The notes below the pieces were generated by a model. The model was not told the origin of the DNA. It made no database searches and saw only the letters and a program-made list of their open reading frames with translations. A DNA stretch of 64,000 nt from Armatimonadota bacterium (lineage in GTDB: Bacteria; Armatimonadota; HRBIN16): the NCBI GenBank assembly GCA_026003195.1, contig BPGU01000003.1, positions 472,763-536,762 of the forward strand, read 5' to 3'. Position numbers and translations under genes: made by a program. Numbering within the stretch: the stretch's first letter is position 1; each line of letters begins with the position of its first letter. Of the stretch, positions 38,159-50,996 are shown one piece after another.

Positions 38159-39241
38159 CTATGTTTGCAGGATCTGTTGCATTGCTTCATTCCACAGCAT
38201 CTTGATAGTGGCAGAAGATTCGCTCATCAGATCAAGAAGCTCCTTAAGAAAAGCATCTCTTCCATGCACTCCAGCAGTTGCCAGGTTGTCGTAAATCCAG
38301 TCACTTAAACGTACGAAGCCAACTTCATGCCCCTGTGCAAAGAGCGAATAAGCCCTCCGAAAAGCGTCTTCTGTCGGAGGGTCGTTGGCAAAAGCAAAAA
38401 GGTAATCGGTAACACTGAGTGCAGAGAGTTTGCTGTGGAAGACTGTTTCCACTCGTGCACCGTCTATCATCCGTTCCGTCACCTCTATGGCGATTCGTAT
38501 GTGTTCACCTTCTCTGACTGTGATGTCTCCTGCTGCGCCGCTCGCGCTATCTGCGACATGAATTCCTTGCCACTCTATTTTCCAATTCAGCCGATATGTG
38601 TTGGAAACGGCTTTGAGCAGTGCTACGCACAGAAGTAGAGGTATCAGACCACCACTTCTTCGGGACAGTAGATTGTCGACCAGTTGACGAATCTGTTCCA
38701 AACTGAGTCGAGGTAAGCGAACCAAGGAGATCGCGGAACTTTCACGCAACCCTACGAAGCGATATAGCAGATATCGTAAAAGATTTAGAGCCGTCTGTTC
38801 ATCAGCTTGCATTAGTTCTTTCAGATATGCCAAGAACGCTTGGTAACCCTTCTTGTCCTTTAACCCTTTTGCGGTGTCGGTGGTGAAGCGGATGCTCCGC
38901 CGGAATACAGCGAGGTATGGTCCCTTGGAACAGGGTATACGCTTCGACACGAGGAATGGATTGACGACCTTCTCATCCAAACTTCGTCCCGAGAAGGCGT
39001 TCTCTCCTTGGTCAGTGTAGGGCTGTGTGAGGTCAATCTGAGCATCTACGACTCGTGCAATGGCACACCCGAGCAGGGCTTCTCGGTATGACTGCACCCC
39101 GGTTTCAAACAGAGTATCTGCGGCTTCCTGCGCTCTTGCCGAAACAGGAGGGGGGGCAGTGTTGAGATAATCTTGCTCTGCACGTTCAAACTGCTCGCGA
39201 AGTATCTGTTCAGCCTTCTTAAAATCTATACTTCTCCCCAT
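38159..39241 (-). CDS. putative type II restriction endonuclease (family unrecognised) partnered with the upstream Dam-like MTase
   Basis: 360-aa ORF starting 6 nt after the MTase stop, in a region of clearly lower GC (about 48-50%). Possible PD-(D/E)xK-like region GDITVREGEHIRIAIEVTER. No similarity that I recognise to DpnII or EcoRV. Confidence 0.5.
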   Translation of the reverse strand: MGRSIDFKKAEQILREQFERAEQDYLNTAPPPVSARAQEAADTLFETGVQSYREALLGCAIARVVDAQIDLTQPYTDQGENAFSGRSLDEKVVNPFLVSKRIPCSKGPYLAVFRRSIRFTTDTAKGLKDKKGYQAFLAYLKELMQADEQTALNLLRYLLYRFVGLRESSAISLVRLPRLSLEQIRQLVDNLLSRRSGGLIPLLLCVALLKAVSNTYRLNWKIEWQGIHVADSASGAAGDITVREGEHIRIAIEVTERMIDGARVETVFHSKLSALSVTDYLFAFANDPPTEDAFRRAYSLFAQGHEVGFVRLSDWIYDNLATAGVHGRDAFLKELLDLMSESSATIKMLWNEAMQQILQT

Positions 39242-39247
39242 GTGAAC

Positions 39248-40171
39248 TTATATCCCTTGCTCAGGTATACTATAGTTCACCCAGAGTGCCTCTTGGCGCG
39301 GTTGCTTTACAGAATGGCAAGTCTTCACTGGGGCAAGAATGCACTTCCAGTCACCGTATAGTTCATCCATCAGATCACAGCGATATCCAGAGATAGCAAC
39401 TTTGCCCTGACACGCATGCAGTACTTTCGCAAGTTCACGGTGCGAGGCTTCATCCATCTCAAACCCATAGGCTTTTCTGTCTTTTCGCGCTTCTGGAGGG
39501 TAGGGTGGGTCGCAGTAGAAGAGGGTATTCGGGGAGTCATACAGTTTGATGACCTCAATCGCCGGGCGATTTTCTATCTGCACCCGCAGCAGGCGTTCCG
39601 CAATCTCAGGGAGCATTTCGATGCCTCCTAGCCAGCGCGATACAACCCCTGACATGCCTCTACGTGAGGTATGGATGCAGTTCGCCCATCTGCCTAGAGT
39701 AGCAGTCTGCGCCAGCCCTGTGCGTGCTTGCCTGGCTCGCACATAGAACCGGCGAGCACGTTCGAGGTCGGAGATGGTCTGGTCAGGCGGTGAGATTGCC
39801 AACTCAAACTCCTCACGCGAAAAGGGGGTTAAAGCGATAGCTTTCACGAGCTCTTCTGTTTGCTCTCTCAGCACCCGAAAGAAATTAACCACCTCTCCAT
39901 CCAAATCGTTGTAGGTCTCTACGGGCGATGGGGCACGGTTCAACAGTACTGCTGCTGAGCCTCCGAAAGGTTCACAGTAATGGTATGTTCGCGGTAGCAG
40001 AGGCAGCAACCAGTCCAGATGGGAATATTTGCCTCCGTACCAGCCGAAGGCGATCAGCTTGCGCGCGCGAGTCCGCCCTTGGCGCGTTACCACAGGAGCA
40101 GGTTTACGCCCACTCTGTGGAGGCGCAGTCAAAAAATAGTCCATGTTCTCCATGATATCGAACAGATCCAT
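39248..40171 (-). CDS. Dam-like (alpha-class, D12 family) N6-adenine DNA methyltransferase
   Basis: EPFGGSAAVLL (motif I, FxGxG) and LFYCDPPYPPE (motif IV, DPPY), in the D12-class order. RBS GAGAGGTGGA. Confidence 0.85.
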   Translation of the reverse strand: MDLFDIMENMDYFLTAPPQSGRKPAPVVTRQGRTRARKLIAFGWYGGKYSHLDWLLPLLPRTYHYCEPFGGSAAVLLNRAPSPVETYNDLDGEVVNFFRVLREQTEELVKAIALTPFSREEFELAISPPDQTISDLERARRFYVRARQARTGLAQTATLGRWANCIHTSRRGMSGVVSRWLGGIEMLPEIAERLLRVQIENRPAIEVIKLYDSPNTLFYCDPPYPPEARKDRKAYGFEMDEASHRELAKVLHACQGKVAISGYRCDLMDELYGDWKCILAPVKTCHSVKQPRQEALWVNYSIPEQGI

Positions 40172-40238: not shown

Positions 40239-42332
40239 CTATACTCTCATGCACAGCCTCACCTGAGTCGGGTCGCCGCCCAACTCCTCGAAAAGCACGA
40301 GCACGTTCTGCTCGCGCAGCCAGTCGGCGGGCAGGTGATAATACCGCTGGGTGGGCAAGCCTTCGCCTTCTGGGTAGACCGCTTGCAGCAACCACTCCTC
40401 AGGCTTACCGGTGCCTGCAGCCAGCCAGTAGCGCCCGATGCACCGTCCGTTCAACCACGCCATGCCCTTGGTCATACCGCTCAGGTCCAGGGCGAGGGGA
40501 GCGTTGGTCTTCGGGCGTTCAAAGGTGGTCTTCCACCAGCAGAGGGGCTTGCCTCGTGCTACCTCGATACTGCTCTCCCATCGCACGTAGGCGCTGCCCT
40601 CGGCATACACCCGACAGTGTTCACCTCTCAGTCCCGCTTCGATACGCCAGGGCGCTTCCAGCGGCTCGCTACGCCATAGCAACCTGCCCCAAAAGCCTTT
40701 GCGCTCGTCTGCCATGTTGTGTTCGCCAAGCATCCAGTCGCCCTTCACTAGCCCCAGCGCACAGCAGAGTATCGCCAGCGTGTGCTCGCCTGCGCTCATC
40801 TCCAGTTCGAACCGCTGGGTAAAACTCTCCGGGTCGTCTAAGTTGCGGTTCTCGGGCAGGGGTGACTGTGTGGTGGCAACGAACTGCCCGTCGAGAAACA
40901 GATGCACCACATCCGCTACTCCCTGCAGCTCCAGCACGCCTTTGCCCTCTTGATGGGGCAACACCATGATTTTGGCAACATACCAGCAATAGTCGGTCTC
41001 GTCGTGGGTGAACTGCAGTTGCTCCACCGGCTTGTCGGAGAGCACTGGCGGGTGTAACGGGATCGGCTCGCCATTGGGGAGCGGCTCTACCCACCACTGG
41101 AAGGGGGCAAGCTTCGGGTCGCAGACCTCCATGCGTCGCTCCAGCACGTATTGGGGCTCCACCTGTGCGGTGTTCATGAGCGGTTGCCCATCGCCGATGA
41201 GGGTGACCGACTGCGGCGGCAGCTGGTAACGACGCCCCGCGCAGGAAACCTCTATGGTCTTTTGGGTATCGTCGTTGCACAGGAAGAGCAGTGAGCGTCC
41301 CTCGTGCTGATAGGTGTACATCAGGGCGCCCTCCGGCAGCGTTTCCGGTTGAGCGCGTTCGCTTTCGACCAGCACCGGGGCGTACTCCTGCAGGATGCGG
41401 TGCAGATGTGCCAGATGGTACATCTTGGTAGTGGGCAAGCCGAACTCGTCCAGCGGGGCGTCGTAGTCATAGCTGGTGGTTTGCAGGAAGGAGCCATCGC
41501 GGTCGAAGTTGGTACCGCCGTGCCACATGTAGTAGTTCATCCCCGTTCCGCCCGCCGCGAAGAAACGTGCCGCCGCATACGCAACGTTTTCAGGGGTGCG
41601 GCGGTTGTGCGGATAGCCCCACAGGTCGTACCAGCCGGGCCAGTGCTCTGTCCACAGCGCGGGTTTGTCGGGGTGACAGGTGAAGTGTTCGTCCAGCAGA
41701 GGATGGGCATAGAAGGCGTTAATGGTCTCGATAGTGCCCGGCGCGCTGCCTTTGCACATCACCCAGGGCACCCCTACCTGCAAGGATTCCGCCATCTCGG
41801 CGATGCGCTTCAGATAGTGTTCACCCGCCTCACCATAGCGCCACGCGATATTGCCGTACTCGTTCTCAATCTGCGCCAGGATGATGGGACCACCGTTCGG
41901 GGCGAAGTAGGGGCGCACATAGTCGCAGAGCAGGCGCACCCATCTCTCCATCTCCCGCAGGAACGGTTCGTTATCGGTGCGCATCTGGATGCCGGGCACA
42001 TCGCGCAGCCAGGCGGGCAAGCCGCCGTAGTTGGTTTCGGCGCAGATGTAGGGACCGATGCGCAGGATAACGTACAGCCCCAGCTCGTGCGCGATGTCCA
42101 GAAAGCGGCGGATATCCAGCCTGTCGGAAAAGTCGTAAACGCCGCGACGACGTTCGTGCAGGTTCCAGAAGACGTAGGTTTCGATAGCGTTCAGTCCCGC
42201 CTCTTTGCTGTGTTCCATCAGCGAACGCCACATACCCGGCGTGCTGCGCGGATAGTGTATGGCTCCGCTAAGGAGCAGGGTGCGTTTACCGTCGATGGTG
42301 ATAGCACGACGATCATAACTCACGTTCGGCAT
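40239..42332 (-). CDS. GH35 beta-galactosidase
   Basis: ...GGPIILAQIENEYG (acid/base) and the N-terminal TIM-barrel pattern LNAIETYVFWNLHE...GLYVILRIGPYICAE. No signal peptide. Confidence 0.85.
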   Translation of the reverse strand: MPNVSYDRRAITIDGKRTLLLSGAIHYPRSTPGMWRSLMEHSKEAGLNAIETYVFWNLHERRRGVYDFSDRLDIRRFLDIAHELGLYVILRIGPYICAETNYGGLPAWLRDVPGIQMRTDNEPFLREMERWVRLLCDYVRPYFAPNGGPIILAQIENEYGNIAWRYGEAGEHYLKRIAEMAESLQVGVPWVMCKGSAPGTIETINAFYAHPLLDEHFTCHPDKPALWTEHWPGWYDLWGYPHNRRTPENVAYAAARFFAAGGTGMNYYMWHGGTNFDRDGSFLQTTSYDYDAPLDEFGLPTTKMYHLAHLHRILQEYAPVLVESERAQPETLPEGALMYTYQHEGRSLLFLCNDDTQKTIEVSCAGRRYQLPPQSVTLIGDGQPLMNTAQVEPQYVLERRMEVCDPKLAPFQWWVEPLPNGEPIPLHPPVLSDKPVEQLQFTHDETDYCWYVAKIMVLPHQEGKGVLELQGVADVVHLFLDGQFVATTQSPLPENRNLDDPESFTQRFELEMSAGEHTLAILCCALGLVKGDWMLGEHNMADERKGFWGRLLWRSEPLEAPWRIEAGLRGEHCRVYAEGSAYVRWESSIEVARGKPLCWWKTTFERPKTNAPLALDLSGMTKGMAWLNGRCIGRYWLAAGTGKPEEWLLQAVYPEGEGLPTQRYYHLPADWLREQNVLVLFEELGGDPTQVRLCMRV

Positions 42333-42641
42333 GGTATTACCTCTGTTTGTAAGGGCTCTTTGCTCTGTCTCTATGCGTGTTCGTTATTCATTCTTGTCGA
42401 TACTATACTTAGACGCACTACCTACGTGTCACCTGCAAGAAGCGACGTAGCCGTCGCGTAAGAGAGTATGCTAAAGCAATCTCTGAGGTGTTACATGACT
42501 CTGTCTTGCAAAAAAGAGAGGAAATGGCTGTTAGCCGGTCGATATAGGACATTTTTTGTTTCTTTACGAGAAAGGGAACGACACATTGTAAACAGAAGAT
42601 TAAGAAGAGATAGTCGGCTTCGGGTATTAGGGTGGAGAGAT

Positions 42642-45600
42642 ATGGAAAAGCCAGTTGAAGATGTCAGAGTTCGCAGCCTAGATGTAACGCAGATGCAGTG
42701 GGGCTTCGGATTCGTGGTGGGAGACAGGAATGCTTTTTTCCACATAAAGGTCCTGCGAAAGAGTTTTCCCGAGATCGCAAACGCGATCGACCCGCGAACG
42801 AGGAAGGGCGTTCCGCCGGCGTTTGTGCCTGGCTTGATAGCACGTGTTACACAGACTTCTAGGGGAAGCGAAGTCGTAGAATTTCTCCTTATAAATGAGT
42901 CGGAAACCTGCCTTGTTGGATACGAGATTACGCAAGAAGGTTATCGGCTCTGCAATCTTCCCGCATTGCATCCTTCATCTAGCTACAGAGTAGACTACTC
43001 ATCGTGGCAGCCTAAAGGTAACTATACAACAGGCTTAGTGGTTTGTGAGGTCAGGCCTGTAACCCTTGTAATGGAATATGTTCGCCGTAGCCCTGATCCC
43101 GCATGGGGAATCTTCCCTATTGCCGAGTACAGTCGTCAGGATATTTCGACGTTTGCTAACCATGTGGAGTGGCAGTCTCCCCAAAACACCGAATTCCTGC
43201 TGAAGATTTTTAGTGAAAGAGTACTACGTGCTCCTGTGGTCGCTCTGGATATAGAGTCAGACGGCGAGCGTATTCACCAAATAGGTATTGCGGGAGCAAA
43301 TGGAGCGACACTCCTTTTCGGAAACGGTAACAAAGGTTTAGACGCTGCTCTACAAGAGCTTCAACAGATCATTAGAGGCAAACTGGTCGTTGGGCACAAT
43401 ATCGTTGATTGGGATATTCCTATACTGAAGCGTCACGGAGTATCTTTCGATGACTCGGAGACCTGGGACACCCTACACATGAGTTTGTGGTCGGCACCTT
43501 TGCAATGGACGCATGCTTTGGGAGGGACACATCAAGCAGACCAGGACGCGCAACAAGCTCTGCGACTTTTCGAAAAGCAGCTATTGGGATGGATAAGCGG
43601 CGCGTATACTATACCCTCTAATCTTCTTCCGTCAACCGTTCGAGAATTGGATGCCGAGATCGCTGTCTTGAAACCCGTATTTTCCTTATGTCCAGTTTCG
43701 CAGAACGAAATAAGAGATGTCAGTGCAGACGACAATTATGCTCGCCAGATTGCAGATCAAATAAGGAGTGTCGTAAAGGATCTCGCGTCTACCACAATAG
43801 TAGTGGTCCCTGAACCCTGCCTGCTAGCTGCACGGTTTCTCGAGGGATCGGCAGTGATAATACCTGAGTCATCGTTTGGCTGGGATGCAAGCGGGGATGC
43901 AGGTATCGCCTTGTGCCCCGAACTAGTACCCTACGAGGCTAACAACGAGAAGTTCTTCTCCATAGCAACCAGGTATATCGAGGCAGCGAGGGCAAGCAAG
44001 ACATCTCCAGACCGCTTCCTGATCCCACCGTATCTAAAGCAGGTTCTTTCTGGAAGCCCAGAGTCGTGGGAAAGAACGAAGAAACGATGTATAAGCTGTA
44101 GCAGTCAGCAATGTGCTTTTTATCCTTCGCGCTTACAGTTTACTACTTACTCCGCCCTTCCTGAACCCTCCTTTTGGGAGTATGTGGAGTCAAAGGATAT
44201 CAAACACATAGTCATTTATTACTATCCTTTAATCCCACCTTACGTGACTATGCGTGTGAAGTCAGAACAACTCGACAAGCTATACCTGCATAGAAGGGGA
44301 TTGCTGATAGCAGCGCGGGAACGGACGGTATCAGTAGACAGAGATATGCTCAGCGTGTTGGGTTTCAGGGAAGATCAACAACAGATACTTCAGAATGCGT
44401 GTTTCCTCCATTACACCGCTTACGATGGCTACTATCTGGTTGCCGACGTCAGGCAACTACGGCTACCGGAAATTCAGAACCTTTCCATTGTCAAACACAT
44501 CTTTCACATCTTTAAGACGGAAGAAGCAATTGGAGAAAAGATTACCATTGCACAACCGAAATACCCGTCTCCAATGAGTGAAGAAGCACCATCTCCGGTC
44601 GTCGCTATAACCACTCGATACCGCGCCGATTTTTGGAGTACTCAAACATTGTTGGTCAAAGAACTGCATCGAAGTTTGAAGGCTCCATTGGTGGTTTTCG
44701 TCCCCCGCGCAGAGGTCACGGAAGTTGAAAACCTGTTTGACGTCGCAGGCATTCCTTTGCTGCCTAGGTACCTTAGCCTACAGAGGCAGACGGAGCTGCT
44801 AACTGTTGGAAAGGTGCTATTACACACCTACCGGAACGCCTATAACCTCTGTTCACAGGCGGTACAGCTACTCACCTCTTATACGCTACCAAAGGGGATA
44901 GTTTTTGTTCTTCCTGAAGTACCTCTTTTCCCTATTGCCGAGCAGAGCTCGTTCACTAACGGGGAGTTCAAGAGTGTGGCGGGAGTAACAACGGAAGCTA
45001 GTATCGAAAATAGCATTCCCGGCGACGAAGAGGAAGAAGAGCAAGATGAAATCCCTGCAGTGCCGCGAAGCCTGCTCGGCGAACACTTTCTCAAAGAGGC
45101 TGCTGCCTTTCTCGTGACGTTGAGCAAGCTAGCGAGTTGCTCCCGTGAGGCAAAGATCGTGGTGACAGATATAGCGGTATCAGCTATAGGATACAGAAGG
45201 CTGCCAGATTTTAGATCTCAAAGATTACCAGTCTACGATGACCAAGAGCGATGTCGAGAGGTGTACGAGAAGGCAGTAGTGTTGTTTGCACAATCTCCTT
45301 TGAAGCCTGCGTTTCCTGAAGATGCCGAGACGCGCTTACAAAGATGGCGAGACCTTCTTCTACCTCCAACAGCGGACTATACTTCAGAACAACGACGTTA
45401 TCTCCTGCGCGTGATGGCGCAAGAAGATGGCGTAGCAGTTCGCATTCCAACTGGTGGGGGGAAATCCGTTATATTCCAGATACCCGCTCTGGACGAAGGG
45501 ATTAGAAGTGGGTTTTTAAGCGTTGTCATCTCGCCCCTTAGAGCTCTCATAGACGATCAGGTGCGTCACCTATGGGAGAAGGGTTTTGCTAGCTGCGTTG

Positions 45601-45965
45601 ACGGGATTACCAGTGACTTAACACAATTTGAGATTGAAAGCATCTTTCGACGCGTAGCTGGTGGAGAGATACTGCTCCTGTACGTCACCCCAGAACGTGT
45701 GTATACGAGACGTTTTCAGAAGTATATAAGCAGGCGCATCGAGCTCGATGGACGTATTGCTTACTGGATTCTAGATGAAGCCCATTGCGTTTCTCAGTGG
45801 GGGCTGGACTTCCGTCCTGCCTACCTGCGCGCTGCCCGCTGGATACAACAACGTCGCCAGGTGAACTTGACCAAACAAGAAGGGGCTACCCCGGTTGTTT
45901 TTCTGTCCGCAACACTAACGGCAAAGACTATCAGTGATCTTAAACGAATATTTGAAACCTTCTAG
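42642..45965 (+). CDS. multidomain protein: cold-shock-like OB fold, DEDDh 3-prime-5-prime exonuclease, about 500 aa unknown, and RecQ-type helicase lobe 1 (motifs I-III); WRN-like architecture
   Basis: CSD-like QWGFGFVVGDRNAFFHI. Exo motifs: I ALDIESDG, II VGHNIVDWDIPIL, III H-QADQDAQQAL. RecQ lobe 1: PTGGGKSVIFQIPAL...VISPLRALIDDQV...LLYVTPER...ILDEAHCVSQWGLDFRPAY...FLSATLT. The ORF stops directly after motif III. ATG 42642 preferred over upstream starts. Low-GC region. Confidence 0.8.
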   Translation: MEKPVEDVRVRSLDVTQMQWGFGFVVGDRNAFFHIKVLRKSFPEIANAIDPRTRKGVPPAFVPGLIARVTQTSRGSEVVEFLLINESETCLVGYEITQEGYRLCNLPALHPSSSYRVDYSSWQPKGNYTTGLVVCEVRPVTLVMEYVRRSPDPAWGIFPIAEYSRQDISTFANHVEWQSPQNTEFLLKIFSERVLRAPVVALDIESDGERIHQIGIAGANGATLLFGNGNKGLDAALQELQQIIRGKLVVGHNIVDWDIPILKRHGVSFDDSETWDTLHMSLWSAPLQWTHALGGTHQADQDAQQALRLFEKQLLGWISGAYTIPSNLLPSTVRELDAEIAVLKPVFSLCPVSQNEIRDVSADDNYARQIADQIRSVVKDLASTTIVVVPEPCLLAARFLEGSAVIIPESSFGWDASGDAGIALCPELVPYEANNEKFFSIATRYIEAARASKTSPDRFLIPPYLKQVLSGSPESWERTKKRCISCSSQQCAFYPSRLQFTTYSALPEPSFWEYVESKDIKHIVIYYYPLIPPYVTMRVKSEQLDKLYLHRRGLLIAARERTVSVDRDMLSVLGFREDQQQILQNACFLHYTAYDGYYLVADVRQLRLPEIQNLSIVKHIFHIFKTEEAIGEKITIAQPKYPSPMSEEAPSPVVAITTRYRADFWSTQTLLVKELHRSLKAPLVVFVPRAEVTEVENLFDVAGIPLLPRYLSLQRQTELLTVGKVLLHTYRNAYNLCSQAVQLLTSYTLPKGIVFVLPEVPLFPIAEQSSFTNGEFKSVAGVTTEASIENSIPGDEEEEEQDEIPAVPRSLLGEHFLKEAAAFLVTLSKLASCSREAKIVVTDIAVSAIGYRRLPDFRSQRLPVYDDQERCREVYEKAVVLFAQSPLKPAFPEDAETRLQRWRDLLLPPTADYTSEQRRYLLRVMAQEDGVAVRIPTGGGKSVIFQIPALDEGIRSGFLSVVISPLRALIDDQVRHLWEKGFASCVDGITSDLTQFEIESIFRRVAGGEILLLYVTPERVYTRRFQKYISRRIELDGRIAYWILDEAHCVSQWGLDFRPAYLRAARWIQQRRQVNLTKQEGATPVVFLSATLTAKTISDLKRIFETF

Positions 45966-45990
45966 CCAGAGACGGAGTGTGGAGGATAAG

Positions 45991-48900
45991 ATGTTTAACG
46001 AGACGACACCTTCTGCAGAAGTGATTCAAGATTATCTCTCTTTGCGTTTCGAGCAGGTACCTCGTGCAGAACGCACAGAGTGGGTAGCAGATTATCTAGT
46101 TGATGCTATCTTTAATAGCGAGTTTAACCCGCAGCTCAGCAGGGCAATCGTTTTTGTCACCGCTCGGAATCGAGCAGAAGAAGTAGCCCAAGGGCTCCAA
46201 CAACTCTTTGAAAAGCGTAACCTGAGGCTTGCAGTAGAGGCTTTCCACGCGGAACTATCAGGAGAAGTGCGCAAGGAGCGCTATGAACAGTTTCGCGAGG
46301 GTAGCCTGTGTGTCCTTGTTGCTACGAAGGCTTTCGGATTGGGAATGGATATCCCCAACATCCACTTGGTTGTCCATTATGATCCGCCGACCAGCCTCGA
46401 GGACTACATTCAGGAGATAGGTAGAGCTGGACGAGACCCCAAAGCACGCCTCCAGGCGGGTTTCGACGGTTCGCGTCGTGTACCCTGTATACTGCTGTGG
46501 GACGCAGACGACTTAGGACGCTCTCGTGACCGCCTGCGTCGTCAGCTAGTCTCTTGGCACGACGTTACGCGAGTTTTCGAAGCTATCAAGGAATATGCGA
46601 AAGAGGTCGGGCATATATTCGCGACGGCGGGGCAGCAAAGTGACAAGCCTCTGTATGTACCTACTAACCTACTCGCCGCCGAAAGGAACGGCGCGCTGAA
46701 ACTAGACATGGGAATGTACTGGCTGGAAAGAGCGGAAAGGATTAAAGTCTGCTACATGGTTCCAGGGCTATTCTACATCAAGAGGCTAGTAGATAAACCC
46801 AAAGATGTAGACAAAAGAATACTTGCTCTGATGGATCTTATCGCCAGAAGGGAAAGAGGCGACGAGGCTGTGCCGTTGCTGATATACGAACTTCTGTGTG
46901 AGCTGGAGATCGAGGATATCCCTGACCTGGTTGACTTTCTCTCGCAGGTAGAAAAGAAGGGATACATCGAGGTTGTTGACAAGATTCATGTTAGGACTAC
47001 AGGAAAATGGCTTAGCGAGGTCGAGGGTGCACTCCAAGGCAAGTTAGATATACCGCGCCTTCGCACGGCGATGAACATCTTGCAAGGAATCGTGCAAGAA
47101 GCGGCTGCCTGCCAGGATGGCTTGCTTAGGCTAAGTCGAGACGAGCTCGAGAGTCTTAAGAAGGAACTCGCCATCAAGTCCTTAGGAGAGAACAACAAAG
47201 GATGGGCGGAAGATGTAGCAAAACGTGCTTGCATCCTGCGTATGCTCACACTGGCACCAGGTGTCAGCGTAAGGACCTCTGTGGAAGAGGGGAAACTTTA
47301 CTACAGTATAGTGGTTCTAGGAAAAAAGGGTGGCGCCGAGTCATCTCAGTTTACGCAATGGCTATACGAGACATCAGCAAGTTTTCTTCGAGAAGTGTAT
47401 GTTGCCAACAGTGGAACGTACTCTCTTACGAAGATCCTCGCTTCGTTGGGTCTCATCAACCAAGGAAAGCTTTGGGGGTATAACTCCTTAGAACTGCTGG
47501 CACTTGTCATCCAGTGGCTGAGAGGACTAGGTTACGTTCACGCGGACTCCAACCTTATACCTTTCGCTACGGAGATCCTGCTGAAAGACACTCGTGACCT
47601 GGATCCATCCGATTTGCGCAGCCTTGACTATCAGGTGCAGCAAAAGTTGATAGAAAGTAACCGCTTTAGGGAGTTGAGTATGTTCGTGCTGTTCACAATA
47701 GCCAAGATTGGTGAGGAGCAAACTGTAAGGGATCTGGTGAGAAGCTATTTTGAAGTAGAGGACTCGGCGACGCTTATGGATCTTCTGTTGACGAGACTAC
47801 CCGACACAAGCGACCTTGTTAGAGCACTCCGTGCGGACGCCCTGCGCGAGGAGATGGAAAGGCTTAATGAGGAGCAGAGGCAGGTCGTCACTGCTCCGGT
47901 AAACTGTTCTCTCATTGTGTATGCGGGACCAGGCTCTGGAAAGACCCATACCCTTCTACTACGCCTCGCATATCTTGTGCATGAAGAACAGATTACTCCT
48001 TCACAAATACTGGTGCTTGCCTACAATAACGCTGTGGTAACAGAGATTCGTCATCGGCTGCGTGAATTGTTTAGGAGGTTAGGATATGCCTCATATATCA
48101 ACGGCTTGTCTGTGTATACTTTCCACGGTTTTGTGCGCGCTCTGGTAGGGAGGCAGATGAATTCGCTAAGTGAACGAGAACGGGAGGAACTCTTAGATAA
48201 TTGTTGCTATCTACAGGTTACTCAATCTGCTGACTACAACAAACTCATTCGGCGAAGAAGGGGAACTGTTAATCCCGATGGTACAAGAAGGCTACCTGTG
48301 TCTATGTATATCGCGTACTTTAACTACCTGTGCGAGCAGGGACGTGCACCGTTGGAGTTGTCAAACTATCGCTACATTTTGGTAGACGAGTTTCAAGACA
48401 TCACCGAAGAGCGTTATCGGATGCTGAGACATATCTCCAACGCTAGTAACAAGTATCTGACTGTCATTGGCGATGACGACCAGAGTATCTACGGGTATGA
48501 GAGGGAGCGAGAGATAGATGCAGGGCTGCTTGATTCACAAAAAGGCCGGGCTAAGGTCGTTGGAGCTAGTTGGTGGTTCGCACGCTTCAAAAAGGAATAT
48601 CAAGCAAACCACATCGTCCTGAAATCGAACTACCGAAGCCTTCCCCTAATACTGGTAACTGCTCTGGACTGGATCAGCCGAAACAGTTCACACGTTAAAC
48701 AGTACAAACAAGATATGCGTGCAGAGCGTACAGTATCGGAGCAATGGGACATTCGCGACAGGTACTGTGAGATTATTGAAGACACCCAGGTGGACTGGAA
48801 GGATATCGTTCGTTCTCTGTTATCTGAGAAAAACACTCAGGGAACGAAATATAGAGAGATCGCTTTGCTGTTCCGATACCATGCACAGGCTTACAGAGCC

Positions 48901-49923
48901 TACCAGATTCTGCGTGAAGATGATCTATTGGGAGGGATGCTTCGCCTGCATGATAGGTCGCCGCACTTTACCAATATCCGGGAAGTACACCTTGTGCTAC
49001 AGCGATGGGAACAGCGTGCAAGTGAGCCAATTGATGAGATAAAACCGTTCGAGGACATACAAGAGGTCGCTCAGGAGTGCCGTCTCAGTATGGATGCGGA
49101 CAACCTGTCTTTGTTGAACATGCTGGCAAAAGAATTTTTTCTCACCGCTCCGCCTCGTTCCACATACTCAGACCTCATCCAGGCAGTACAGGACTTCGAA
49201 CACAGCGGCAACATCAGCAAGCTGATGCAGGCGTACTGGGACAAAGTTAGCGGTCAAGAACGAGAGACGCGAATCATTCTGACTACTTTTCATCAGGCAA
49301 AAGGCTTAGAGTTCGATGCTGTAGTGGTAGCTCCTGTCGAGAAACTAATGCGTAACAATGGCTCCCAAGACGAGGACAGCCCGGAAGAGGATACAAACAA
49401 TCCAGAAGAGCTGAGGCGGATTGTTTACGTTGGTTTAACCCGAGCTCGAGATAGATTGATATGGATTCGTGGCGACATCGAAAAACAGCTCCTTGCAGGA
49501 AAGTTAGCGGCGCAACCAATGGAAGAACCGCTTGTCACCTTCAAGTGGAGCGACCCTTCCACCATCTTTCTCTCCTACTGTGCAAGCGACCAACTGGCAG
49601 CAAAGTCTGGTTCGACAGCTGTTAGCTTACAGGACTACATACGACAAGAAGTACATAGGTATGACCCTCTCAAGCTTGTCCCCCTCAACGATCAGCTTTA
49701 CCTCCAACACGGGGACACCAATTTTGTTGCAAGAGTAGCAGGAAACTGGCGCGACAGAATCTTGAATCTGAGCAGATATAAATCCCACCTGTACGTTTCT
49801 GATGTTTTCTGGAAAGAGTACGATGAAAACGAAGACATAGAAAGGGATTACGTATCCGAATCCATCAAAAACCGTGGCGGCTATTACTACGTCTCCGTCT
49901 TTGGCTACGTAGAGCCCGCGTAA
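45991..49923 (+). CDS. multidomain protein: RecQ helicase lobe 2 (motifs IV-VI), linker, UvrD/Rep-like SF1 helicase, and an unknown C-terminal domain
   Basis: GGAGG then ATG 45991. RecQ lobe 2: [16 protein letters not shown]...[42 protein letters not shown]. UvrD motifs: [12 protein letters not shown] (I), TFHGF (Ia), VDEFQDIT (II), IGDDDQSIY (III), NYRS (IV), [12 protein letters not shown] (V), VYVGLTRAR (VI). The ORF track start at 45934 is a GTG in the overlap. Confidence 0.8.
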   Translation: [1310 protein letters not shown]

Positions 49924-49972
49924 TCACCAAGGCGTTCCTGCTTACACATAGCCTGTTCTCATCTCTGCAGTA

Positions 49973-50392
49973 CTACTCCCTCCTCGGTATCGGGCGATCC
50001 TCGAAGTAGTGCGGGTTCTCGCTTTCCATCACATGGTGTCGAAAAGCCTCGATCAACCGCTCCGCTTCCGAGCGCAGTCGGAAGGTACCTTTCACCTCGC
50101 CCTGCCACACGTCCTCCTGCACCCATTCGGGCACCGGCATGAAGACTACCGGCTCCGGGGTGTCTACCTCCACACACAGGATCAGTGGCGCGCCCGGGGT
50201 GTCATGTAGAAAGACGAACTCCAGTATGACGCTGTGCGGGGTATAGCGGGTGCTGCCCATCTGCACTTCGCGCATCTGCACTGCCTCTTCGAAGGTCTTG
50301 AGGTCAAAGTGTCCGACGGGCGGCGCCTGTTTGTGCTGCAGCGCTTCCAGAATCTGCTTGCGGGTGGTGTTGGTGAACTCACGCAGGGTCAT
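49973..50392 (-). CDS. hypothetical protein
   Basis: 139-aa high-GC ORF, convergent with the helicase module. No recognisable domain. Confidence 0.45.
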   Translation of the reverse strand: MTLREFTNTTRKQILEALQHKQAPPVGHFDLKTFEEAVQMREVQMGSTRYTPHSVILEFVFLHDTPGAPLILCVEVDTPEPVVFMPVPEWVQEDVWQGEVKGTFRLRSEAERLIEAFRHHVMESENPHYFEDRPIPRRE

Positions 50393-50396
50393 TGTC

Positions 50397-50996
50397 TCAC
50401 CTCCGACGATTCTCCAGCCACTCCTCCACCTCCTCCAGGCTTTGCTGGTAGTGTCCTATCTCCTGTTGCAGCTCCTGCAGCGCTTCCAGCAGACCCTTGG
50501 GAGGGTCGGTCGTGACGCGCGGTGTGGAATGGAGCAACAGCACCCTATCGTGCAGCACATCCAGCGCCACCAGCCACTGATGTATCTGCGCTTCGATCTG
50601 ACGTGCCGCCAGCAGGGCATGATTGCGCTGGCGACGAGATTCCTCCAGCTGTTTCAGTGTCAGGCGGTACGTAATCGCCAGTTCGATCTCTCCACGGTGT
50701 TCATACCACCATGCCAGCCCCGTGTACCACAGCCGCTGCAACCACCGGTCCGGGGGCAGGTGCCTCAAAATACGGTCTTGCTGCAGCAGGTGTTCGTAGA
50801 TGCCTGCCAGTAGCCTCTGCAGGCTTTCCGGCAGTTCGCGCAGGCACTCCTTGCCGTGTCGGGGTAAGGAGCGATAGGTGCGCAGGATCCTCTTCGCGCG
50901 TTCTCGCACCCGACGCCACAGCGCTTGCGTGCGCCCATGCCGCAGTCGACGTGCTTGCCACTGTTGCCATCTCTCCAGCCAGGTACGCCAAATCAT
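50397..50996 (-). CDS. hypothetical protein (Trp/Arg/Gln-rich helical)
   Basis: 199-aa ORF directly downstream of gatA on the same strand. MIWRTWLERWQQWQARR.... Confidence 0.45.
   Translation of the reverse strand: MIWRTWLERWQQWQARRLRHGRTQALWRRVRERAKRILRTYRSLPRHGKECLRELPESLQRLLAGIYEHLLQQDRILRHLPPDRWLQRLWYTGLAWWYEHRGEIELAITYRLTLKQLEESRRQRNHALLAARQIEAQIHQWLVALDVLHDRVLLLHSTPRVTTDPPKGLLEALQELQQEIGHYQQSLEEVEEWLENRRR

Follow-up and report, generated by a model that had tools for sequence, protein, structure and literature searches.

The window analysed here is a stretch of 64,000 nucleotides from an Armatimonadota bacterium (GenBank assembly GCA_026003195.1, contig BPGU01000003.1, positions 472,763 to 536,762 of the forward strand). 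Our subject is a pair of adjacent genes within it, A and B, which between them encode the two RecA-like lobes of a RecQ-like superfamily 2 (SF2) helicase motor: lobe 1 stands at the C-terminus of protein A and lobe 2 at the N-terminus of protein B. The same cut is found in many distant bacteria, which argues for two proteins as a maintained design and against an error or a dead gene. We consider it very probable that A and B represent a genuine, evolutionarily maintained gene fission in the RecQ-like motor of an uncharacterised giant family, with halves that would act together.

Helicases of superfamilies 1 and 2 are usually described with both RecA-like lobes on one chain, closing around ATP. 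Genes are known to split at domain boundaries in the course of evolution; what is unusual here is a split that passes through the ATP site of an SF2 motor and is both maintained and widespread.

The junction between genes A and B

Gene A is terminated by TAG (45963–45965) after ...FLSATLTAKTISDLKRIFETF, 16 residues past the SAT of motif III, and the terminal helix of its lobe 1 ends ...DLKRIFETF. Gene B starts at ATG 45991 with the N-terminus MFNETTPSAEV..., lies in the +1 frame relative to A, and runs for 1310 codons to 49923; its start codon follows by 5 nt a Shine–Dalgarno (SD) sequence, GGAGG, at 45981–45985. An earlier note on this DNA had described both the stop just past RecQ motif III and the continuation of RecQ in another frame from an ATG five nucleotides after GGAGG, and a re-reading of the sequence agrees with it on each point. 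Frame B is open from 45919, preceded by a TAA at 45916–45918, so a single +1 shift anywhere in 45919–45965 (47 nt) would join A and B.

GGAGG occurs six times on the forward strand of the 8.2-kb island, which gives a post hoc estimate of approximately 0.5% for one lying 4–10 nt before a given ATG; a chance origin of GGAGG-N5-ATG at gene B is unlikely. Elsewhere in the window, GGAGG also precedes several clear starts of genes. The junction gives no significant signal of RNA structure (z = +0.57), and there is no homopolymer longer than 3 nt in the A/B overlap zone. Phase variation was considered and rejected, since no repeat tract is seen in 45919–45990.

A RecQ-type core cut between its lobes

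The NCBIfam recQ profile matches A over its positions 14–182 and B over its positions 226–320, and the cores of RecQ, RECQL5, BLM and WRN in the PDB match A and B in a complementary manner, with lobe 1 of RecQ, RECQL5 and BLM matching the C-terminal part of gene A. These complementary matches place the cut at the boundary of two RecA-like lobes. Pfam agrees with this division: DEAD (74.5 bits) is found only at the C-terminus of A, and Helicase_C (82.5 bits) at B residues 49–148. Motifs I, II and III are carried by A and motifs IV, V and VI by B, so that the lobes are on two polypeptides. Neither protein reaches the 219.8-bit cut-off of the recQ_fam model TIGR00614 (A 108, B 80.3), nor does their sum. 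The RecQ Zn-binding domain (PF16124), RQC and HRDC have no match in B at E ≤ 0.01, and the sequence of B has no cysteine cluster after motif VI.

A structural model of a fused relative locates the cut more closely. The core of the fused giant P0001 (residues 1086–1600) was modelled by AlphaFold2 with a mean predicted local distance difference test (pLDDT) score of 78 and a predicted template modelling (pTM) score of 0.73, both lobes being confident, and Foldseek with this model finds the RecQ, RECQL5, BLM and WRN cores, that is, a RecQ-type fold. The sole stretch inside the helicase core with pLDDT below 50 comprises model residues 197–214, between the post-SAT helix (182–193) and the first strand of lobe 2 (221–227, HPIRNHIEI). 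When aligned to P0001, the C-terminus of A falls at approximately 195–196 and the initiator Met of B at the start of the low-confidence stretch. Taken together, the modelled linker and the alignment position put the fission in a predicted flexible surface linker at the domain boundary, between the two RecA-like lobes.

The same locus in other assemblies

The window and its closest relatives form a clade represented by assemblies from four read sets, with three haplotypes. One contig of 8,169 bp (L001, Logan assembly DRR290133) is 100% identical to window positions 41860–50028, and is possibly derived from the same reads as the metagenome-assembled genome (MAG) to which the window belongs. Versions with at least 90% protein identity are present in L002 (JGI 3300038964), in L003/L004 (SRR13170868 / GCA_017880035.1) and in L005 (SRR23854656); L002 is a 135-kb contig with the gene neighbourhood seen in the window.

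The junction DNA of all assemblies in the clade aligns without an indel, and the +1 offset, the GGAGG and the ATG are retained despite nearby substitutions. In L005 (L005:3976–4012, equivalent to window 45945–45998) the TAG has become TCG, and A extends for 12 codons to a TAA that overlaps the ATG of B (ATGCTTAA). The spaced junction has here turned into an overlapping one: the stop has been relocated and the frames are still separate.

Split and fused forms across the family

The wider family was sampled with a word-indexed search in which concatenated A+B served as query, and then with an exhaustive HMMER scan with B. The former returned only fused giants of 2,323–2,682 aa (34–39% best-segment identity) and shorter fused RecQ+UvrD proteins; it missed the split forms and the window's own cluster, and alone would wrongly suggest a unique disruption. 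The fused giants, P0001–P0007 among them, are collinear with A followed by B, and as proteins of 2,300–2,900 aa they are the other common form of the family; open frames of 2,889 codons (L008) and 3,973 codons (L009) are likewise fused.

The HMMER scan with B gave 340 matches at E ≤ 1e-30. Many of the best 150 representatives are 1,250–1,400 aa long, with B residue ~10–40 aligned to their residue ~13–40, and the B-type N-termini follow the pattern MI[EQK]RL......YNPIR.HI. Profile classification of 164 representatives yielded 46 of split type (B-type proteins starting at the lobe boundary), 94 long fused and 11 short fused. A metagenome scan seeded with the head of B found 16 of 80 loci to be split and the others fused. 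Split forms account for roughly a fifth to a quarter of the sampled family members, in at least three phyla; they occur at least in Armatimonadota, one Deltaproteobacteria MAG and the cyanobacterium Coleofasciculus. A scan of genome contigs was dominated by the generic UvrD Walker A pattern and says little on the frequency of splits; the 30 family loci among the matches listed are all fused, mostly at 1,600–1,900 aa. Relatives at 30–40% identity have the two-gene layout with the cut at the homologous position, and annotated split forms carry only the label 'UvrD-helicase domain-containing protein'.

Eighteen distant split loci were read at the DNA level (L006, L007 and 16 from metagenomes). 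A co-oriented A-type open reading frame (ORF) lies directly upstream of B in 17 of them, with tails that end 14–28 residues after SAT; DExH is present in all 17 tails, and Walker A in every one that a contig end does not cut short. At the remaining locus, L163, a boundary-type start of B (MIERLEKNTVYNPIR) is seen and the A tail is not cleanly readable. The two genes meet in a stop/start overlap of ATGA (or TTGA) in 10 of the 18, as is typical of translationally coupled genes; ...I-F-S-stop overlapping M-I-x-R (tcATGAt, offset −1) is the junction seen most often. At L006, a locus in the Deltaproteobacteria MAG, a 1622-aa A-type gene ends ...LSATMTEQVLKDLERIFS* and its stop overlaps the start of the B-type P0040 (ATGA), and at L007 a 1159-aa A-type gene lies 7 nt upstream of the B-type P0041. 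Junctions in other lineages have a 7-nt gap or overlaps of 8, 20 or 50 nt, and the window clade has its 25-nt spacer with SD. In a rough neighbour-joining tree the split forms fall into approximately six pure clades plus singletons, with about eight changes of state by parsimony.

Constraint on both halves

Conservation in distant relatives and selection within the window clade both bear on whether the halves are functional. Among 33 split B proteins with approximately 26–30% identity to the window, T112, K113, A114, F115, G116 and G118 of motif V and Q141, E142, G144, R145 and R148 of motif VI are invariant, as are the UvrD motifs. Catalytic residues are retained on both sides of a cut that separates adjacent, co-oriented ORFs, collinear with single-ORF homologues and divided at a conserved, homologous position.

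Within the window clade the selection test drew on 115 substitutions among the three haplotypes (table 1). The RecQ lobes have omega values of 0.06–0.18, in keeping with purifying selection, and B residues 1–160 overall show 3N:5S. The two indels that distinguish the haplotypes preserve the reading frame (+2 codons in A, −1 codon in B). In a neutral simulation, the probability that no stop would arise was 0.11 for B alone and 0.014 for A and B together.

Table 1. Nonsynonymous (N) and synonymous (S) substitutions in the window clade; counts are small, and domain boundaries were picked after the Pfam results.
Region	N:S	Omega	P versus neutral
A, whole	24:31	0.24	2e-7
RecQ lobe 1 (A 915–1107)	1:5	0.06	0.004
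Helicase_C in B (49–148)	1:4	0.08	0.013
B, whole	42:18	0.69	not significant
B middle (161–620)	19:6	~1	not significant
B C-terminus (1158–1310)	9:1	~2.5	not significant

The helicase lobe is constrained while other parts vary, a pattern unlike that of a uniformly decaying pseudogene. To judge from the sequences, it looks like conserved motors combined with fast-evolving specificity modules. The middle region (46471–47850) and the C-terminus (49462–49920) of B change mostly at nonsynonymous sites, and the lobes do not; the counts are small, but a module for specificity or sensing may here be under diversifying selection.

Proposed mechanism

Under the reading of a maintained fission, A would supply lobe 1 with Walker A, DEAH and SAT, and B would supply lobe 2 with motifs IV–VI, including the arginine finger, together with a superfamily 1 (SF1) helicase. 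Co-transcription of A and B is most likely, as suggested by their adjacency and by a scan that found no promoter- or terminator-like site between them. In the window lineage, B would be translated from its own SD and ATG, with GGAGG 5 nt before the start and the start 25 nt past the stop of A; in most lineages, translation of B would proceed by termination and reinitiation at the ATGA overlap. A and B would then associate with motifs IV–VI of B opposite Walker A, DEAH and SAT of A, forming the ATP site in trans at the A/B interface and giving a motor like that of the fused relatives of 2,300–2,900 aa. Both the complex and its ATPase activity in trans are predicted from sequence.

The earlier note had preferred a genuine split gene, and the recurrence of the split at a homologous site, its presence in three haplotypes and the conserved motifs of both lobes bear this out. 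It had named an indel restoring a single ORF, or fusion in all close homologues with this copy alone disrupted, as results that would speak against the split, and had called for fused and split orthologues to be compared. No such indel appears in the other assemblies, and both forms exist among homologues: the split is recurrent, and neither the close nor the distant homologues are all fused.

Several points weigh against a maintained fission. Omega for the whole of B, 0.69, is not significantly below 1 in the window clade, and the probability of 0.11 that B would gain no stop under neutrality is not small. Short-term selection on B rests on the 1N:4S of Helicase_C and one in-frame indel. The neutral N:S expectation ignored transition bias (84 of the 115 substitutions), so the P values in table 1 are somewhat optimistic. 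The tree is rough, which leaves the number of fission and fusion events uncertain and one event indistinguishable from several. The window junction, with its +1 offset and 25-nt spacer, is unlike the common ATGA overlap, and common ancestry with the other splits is plausible. Finally, joint binding of A and B and their hydrolysis of ATP are steps that we infer.

Alternative explanations

The best-placed alternative is that the locus is a recent frameshift pseudogene, in which a 1-nt indel struck an ancestrally fused gene and left only A, or nothing, functional while B decays. We judge this distinctly unlikely. It draws on the existence of fused homologues, whose linker length is restored by the extension of frame B upstream of its ATG, on the whole-gene omega and no-stop probability of B, and on omega values of ~1–2.5 in the middle and C-terminal parts; the small divergence of the island (synonymous divergence, dS, 0.01–0.03) would also have allowed little time for decay. 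Yet Helicase_C, at 1N:4S, is unlike the rest of B, both haplotype indels keep the frame, and GGAGG and ATG have survived despite flanking substitutions. The disruption is common to the clade and to distant clades, with no further stops or frameshifts, and dozens of lineages that diverged long ago, with lobe-2 motifs that do not vary, have the cut at the identical position. Strong conservation of lobe 1 in A would make little sense with a dead partner lobe, and the split island is 99–100% identical among hosts with backbones of 87–95%, which points to its recent spread or retention.

A second possibility accepts the split as real and holds that the halves have diverged, A and B acting separately with lobes that no longer form one ATPase. 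The complete SF1 helicase in B could indeed work alone, and the A–B complex is one that we infer. A single RecA lobe, however, cannot form an SF2 ATP site, as established helicase biochemistry has it; split lineages keep GxGKS, DExH and SAT in A and motifs IV–VI with QExGRAGR in B, and A and B are adjacent and co-oriented in every readable split locus. Separate functions are therefore very unlikely.

Programmed +1 ribosomal frameshifting, or another form of recoding within 45919–45965, would yield a single fused polypeptide. Stop-codon-stimulated frameshifting is a known mechanism, as in prfB, and a +1 shift at ...ACC TTC TAG would read ...ETF-SQRRSVEDKMFNE, frame B being open from 45919. The signals that would be expected are missing. 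Re-pairing from TTC to TCT is poor, so the sequence offers no good slippery site; the GGAGG is downstream, and the upstream position at which an SD would stimulate a shift has none; and RNA structure is absent. L005 has lost the TAG and two frames persist there. Distant split loci vary in offset (−1 with ATGA; +1 with gaps or overlaps) and have unrelated junction sequences, and in them stops in frame B often lie just 4–7 codons before the ATG of B. The earlier note had raised programmed frameshifting as an option; with no structure, no slippery site, differing junctions and the loss of the TAG in L005, it becomes extremely unlikely.

A sequencing or assembly error, the other option left by that note, has a practically negligible chance even though the window comes from a MAG and L001 possibly shares its reads, for three other datasets, assembled through different pipelines, hold distinct haplotypes with the same frame arrangement, and no homopolymer in the overlap zone exceeds 3 nt. 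Split-intein trans-splicing was rejected: A ends 16 residues past SAT and B starts approximately 10 residues before the first strand of lobe 2, too little space for intein fragments, and a Pfam scan found no intein domain in A or B.

Domain organisation of genes A and B

In protein A, an N-terminal region precedes the DEDDh exonuclease-like module, and a long middle region separates this module from the RecQ-like lobe 1 (table 2). Its start is most likely ATG 42642, as used by NCBI for GIV20947.1, and an SD-like sequence, GGTGGAGAG, stands immediately before it. The DEDDh region has only sub-threshold matches in Pfam (DNA_pol_A_exo1, E = 0.033), and its assignment as an exonuclease is therefore putative. 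This sub-threshold match is the only one that Pfam gives in the N-terminal, middle and C-terminal parts of A and B.

Protein B begins with the RecQ-like lobe 2, which is followed by a variable middle region, then a UvrD-like SF1 helicase and last a C-terminal domain. The middle region is partly conserved across the family, for example at LYWLE. The SF1 helicase, which the earlier description of B had lacked, is complete and of UvrD type at residues 625–1157 by Pfam, with UvrD-helicase (PF00580) at 129 bits (cut-off 23) and UvrD_C (PF13361) at 69.7 bits (cut-off 25.6). B reaches none of the NCBIfam equivalog cut-offs for UvrD, PcrA or Rep, and its SF1 helicase is accordingly a member of the UvrD/Rep/PcrA family rather than an orthologue of one of them.

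Table 2. Positions of genes, domains and motifs in the window.
Feature	Position	Strand	Basis or remark
Gene A, 1107 aa, GIV20947.1	42642..45965	+	ORF list; identical NCBI protein of Armatimonadota MAG KatS3mg023, annotated hypothetical
DEDDh 3′–5′ exonuclease-like motifs in A	43248..43550	+	motifs kept in split and fused homologues
DIESDG	43248..43265	+	gene A
GHNIVDWDIP	43392..43421	+	gene A
HQADQDA	43530..43550	+	gene A
RecQ-like RecA lobe 1 (A residues 915–1107)	45384..45962	+	Pfam DEAD, recQ profile, PDB
Lobe 1 Walker A, PTGGGKS	45447..45467	+	gene A
Lobe 1 DEAH	45774..45785	+	gene A
Lobe 1 SAT (motif III)	45906..45914	+	gene A
Junction: TAG of A, then 25-nt spacer with Shine–Dalgarno GGAGG	45963..45990	+	read in sequence
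Gene B, 1310 aa, GIV20948.1	45991..49923	+	+1 frame relative to A; identical protein in Logan assembly DRR290133
RecQ-like RecA lobe 2 (B residues 1–160)	45991..46470	+	Pfam Helicase_C, recQ profile
Motif IV, IVFVTAR	46147..46167	+	gene B
FHAEL	46243..46257	+	gene B
Motif V, VATKAFGLGMD	46318..46350	+	gene B
Motif VI, QEIGRAGR (arginine finger)	46411..46434	+	gene B
Family-specific middle region of B (residues 161–620), fast-evolving	46471..47850	+	no Pfam family
UvrD/PcrA-like SF1 helicase (B residues 621–1157)	47851..49461	+	Pfam; PDB UvrD and PcrA; PADLOC GajB-like
SF1 Walker A, GPGSGKT	47926..47946	+	gene B
SF1 DEFQD	48385..48399	+	gene B
C-terminal domain of B (residues 1158–1310), fast-evolving	49462..49920	+	no Pfam match

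Genomic setting

The A+B pair forms a 7.5-kb island of 49–50% GC in a genome of approximately 60% GC, flanked by a GH35 gene and two unannotated ORFs of host GC, with an amidase gene beyond. These two ORFs (139 and 199 aa) lie directly downstream of B on the reverse strand at 49973–50996, have no Pfam family and are syntenic in L002. At a distance of 2 kb there is another low-GC island, with genes for a SacI-like endonuclease and a D12 methyltransferase, a type II restriction–modification pair. Between the window and L002 both islands, at 38159–40171 and 42400–49950, are 99–100% identical, against 87–95% for the surrounding host backbone. This points to a recent sweep or exchange among Armatimonadota hosts that have themselves diverged, with the chromosomal position of each island unchanged. 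The L001 contig breaks approximately 500 bp before and 80 bp after the low-GC island, and L003 and L005 are also short, ending near the island edges; these breaks may reflect strain heterogeneity in the source communities.

Relatives of the pair adjoin HicAB, type IV secretion system and NERD-helicase genes. In 22 of 78 loci from metagenomes and relatives the gene directly downstream encodes NERD plus an SF1 helicase (~694 aa), and in 24 such a gene is nearby (e.g. L101:8457–10538); a similar NERD-helicase gene lies upstream at L006:1–1131, and a NusG-like gene is upstream in 10 loci (L103:16–657); neither the NERD-helicase gene nor the NusG-like gene is present in the window. A scan of viral contigs gave one family-level match, the others being generic RecQ-like matches, many of them on giant-virus (GVMAG) contigs. 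The family is essentially absent from viral contigs, and a phage-borne status is not supported.

Possible function and significance

A role for the family in defence or in conflict with mobile elements is plausible. Its combination of exonuclease-like, RecQ-like and UvrD-like modules, and its place in low-GC islands by restriction–modification and toxin–antitoxin genes, make it a reasonable candidate for a defence system. We also put forward, as a rather unlikely idea, that in an unrecognised defence or conflict system the in-trans assembly of the SF2 ATP site serves a function of its own. If so, A and B would become an active motor in some conditions and not in others, as a natural split-enzyme switch limiting autoimmunity; the fast-evolving parts of B would be sensor-like, and switching between fused and split forms through small linker indels would tune control.

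A family with natural split and fused forms offers a system in which to ask how far the coupling of ATP hydrolysis to translocation depends on the covalent linker. The position of the cut also marks a point at which RecQ-type cores tolerate division, knowledge of use in the engineering of split helicases. In current annotation the halves appear as 'hypothetical' or as 'UvrD-helicase domain-containing protein', so that their RecQ motor escapes notice.

Comparison with known systems

Pfam, NCBIfam and PADLOC v2 contain no whole-protein model for the family, giving domain-level matches only, and no description of the A+B family or of a natural RecA1/RecA2 split in a RecQ-like helicase was found in the literature, the coverage of which was incomplete. 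PADLOC models show likeness at the level of domains, with DpdF (131.7 bits) and PsyrT (98.9 bits) on A and GajB (144 bits) on B. Unlike in Dpd, PsyrTA and Gabija (PADLOC v2), these are single-domain matches and the partner genes are not adjacent to A+B.

Helicases divided among genes are known elsewhere. The split reverse gyrase of Nanoarchaeum equitans has two subunits, helicase and topoisomerase, that combine into an active heterodimer (PMC4117796); its genes, NEQ318 and NEQ434, are not adjacent (PMC3655853), whereas A and B are. Like A+B, the reverse gyrases of N. equitans and Methanopyrus kandleri are helicase-containing enzymes made as two subunits, but their cuts separate the helicase module from the topoisomerase or fall within the topoisomerase, and the two RecA lobes stay together. 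DISARM DrmA/DrmB and other YprA-family helicases are broken into several genes (bioRxiv 10.1101/2025.09.15.676423), and a split Lhr is reported in Nanoarchaeota, where the split site is not stated (PMC3655853). These resemble A+B as large or defence-associated SF2 helicases that are divided among genes, consistently or sporadically by lineage. The DISARM break, however, comes after the helicase core (helicase versus OB-CON-DUF1998), and neither DISARM nor Lhr is described as a RecA1/RecA2 cut.

The RecQ helicases (E. coli RecQ 1OYW, RECQL5, BLM and WRN) share with A+B a two-lobe RecA-like core with motifs I–VI, and WRN also pairs a DEDDh exonuclease with a RecQ-like helicase, to which the A+B family adds a UvrD-like motor. 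In contrast to them, A+B has its core on two polypeptides, with lobe 2 fused to a full UvrD-like SF1 helicase, has no detected Zn-binding, RQC or HRDC domain and scores below the recQ_fam cut-off. The fused giant homologues are collinear with A+B domain for domain and have the same catalytic motifs. They differ from the window in being a single ORF, in which a linker of approximately 20–30 residues, of low confidence in the model, takes the place of stop, spacer and start.

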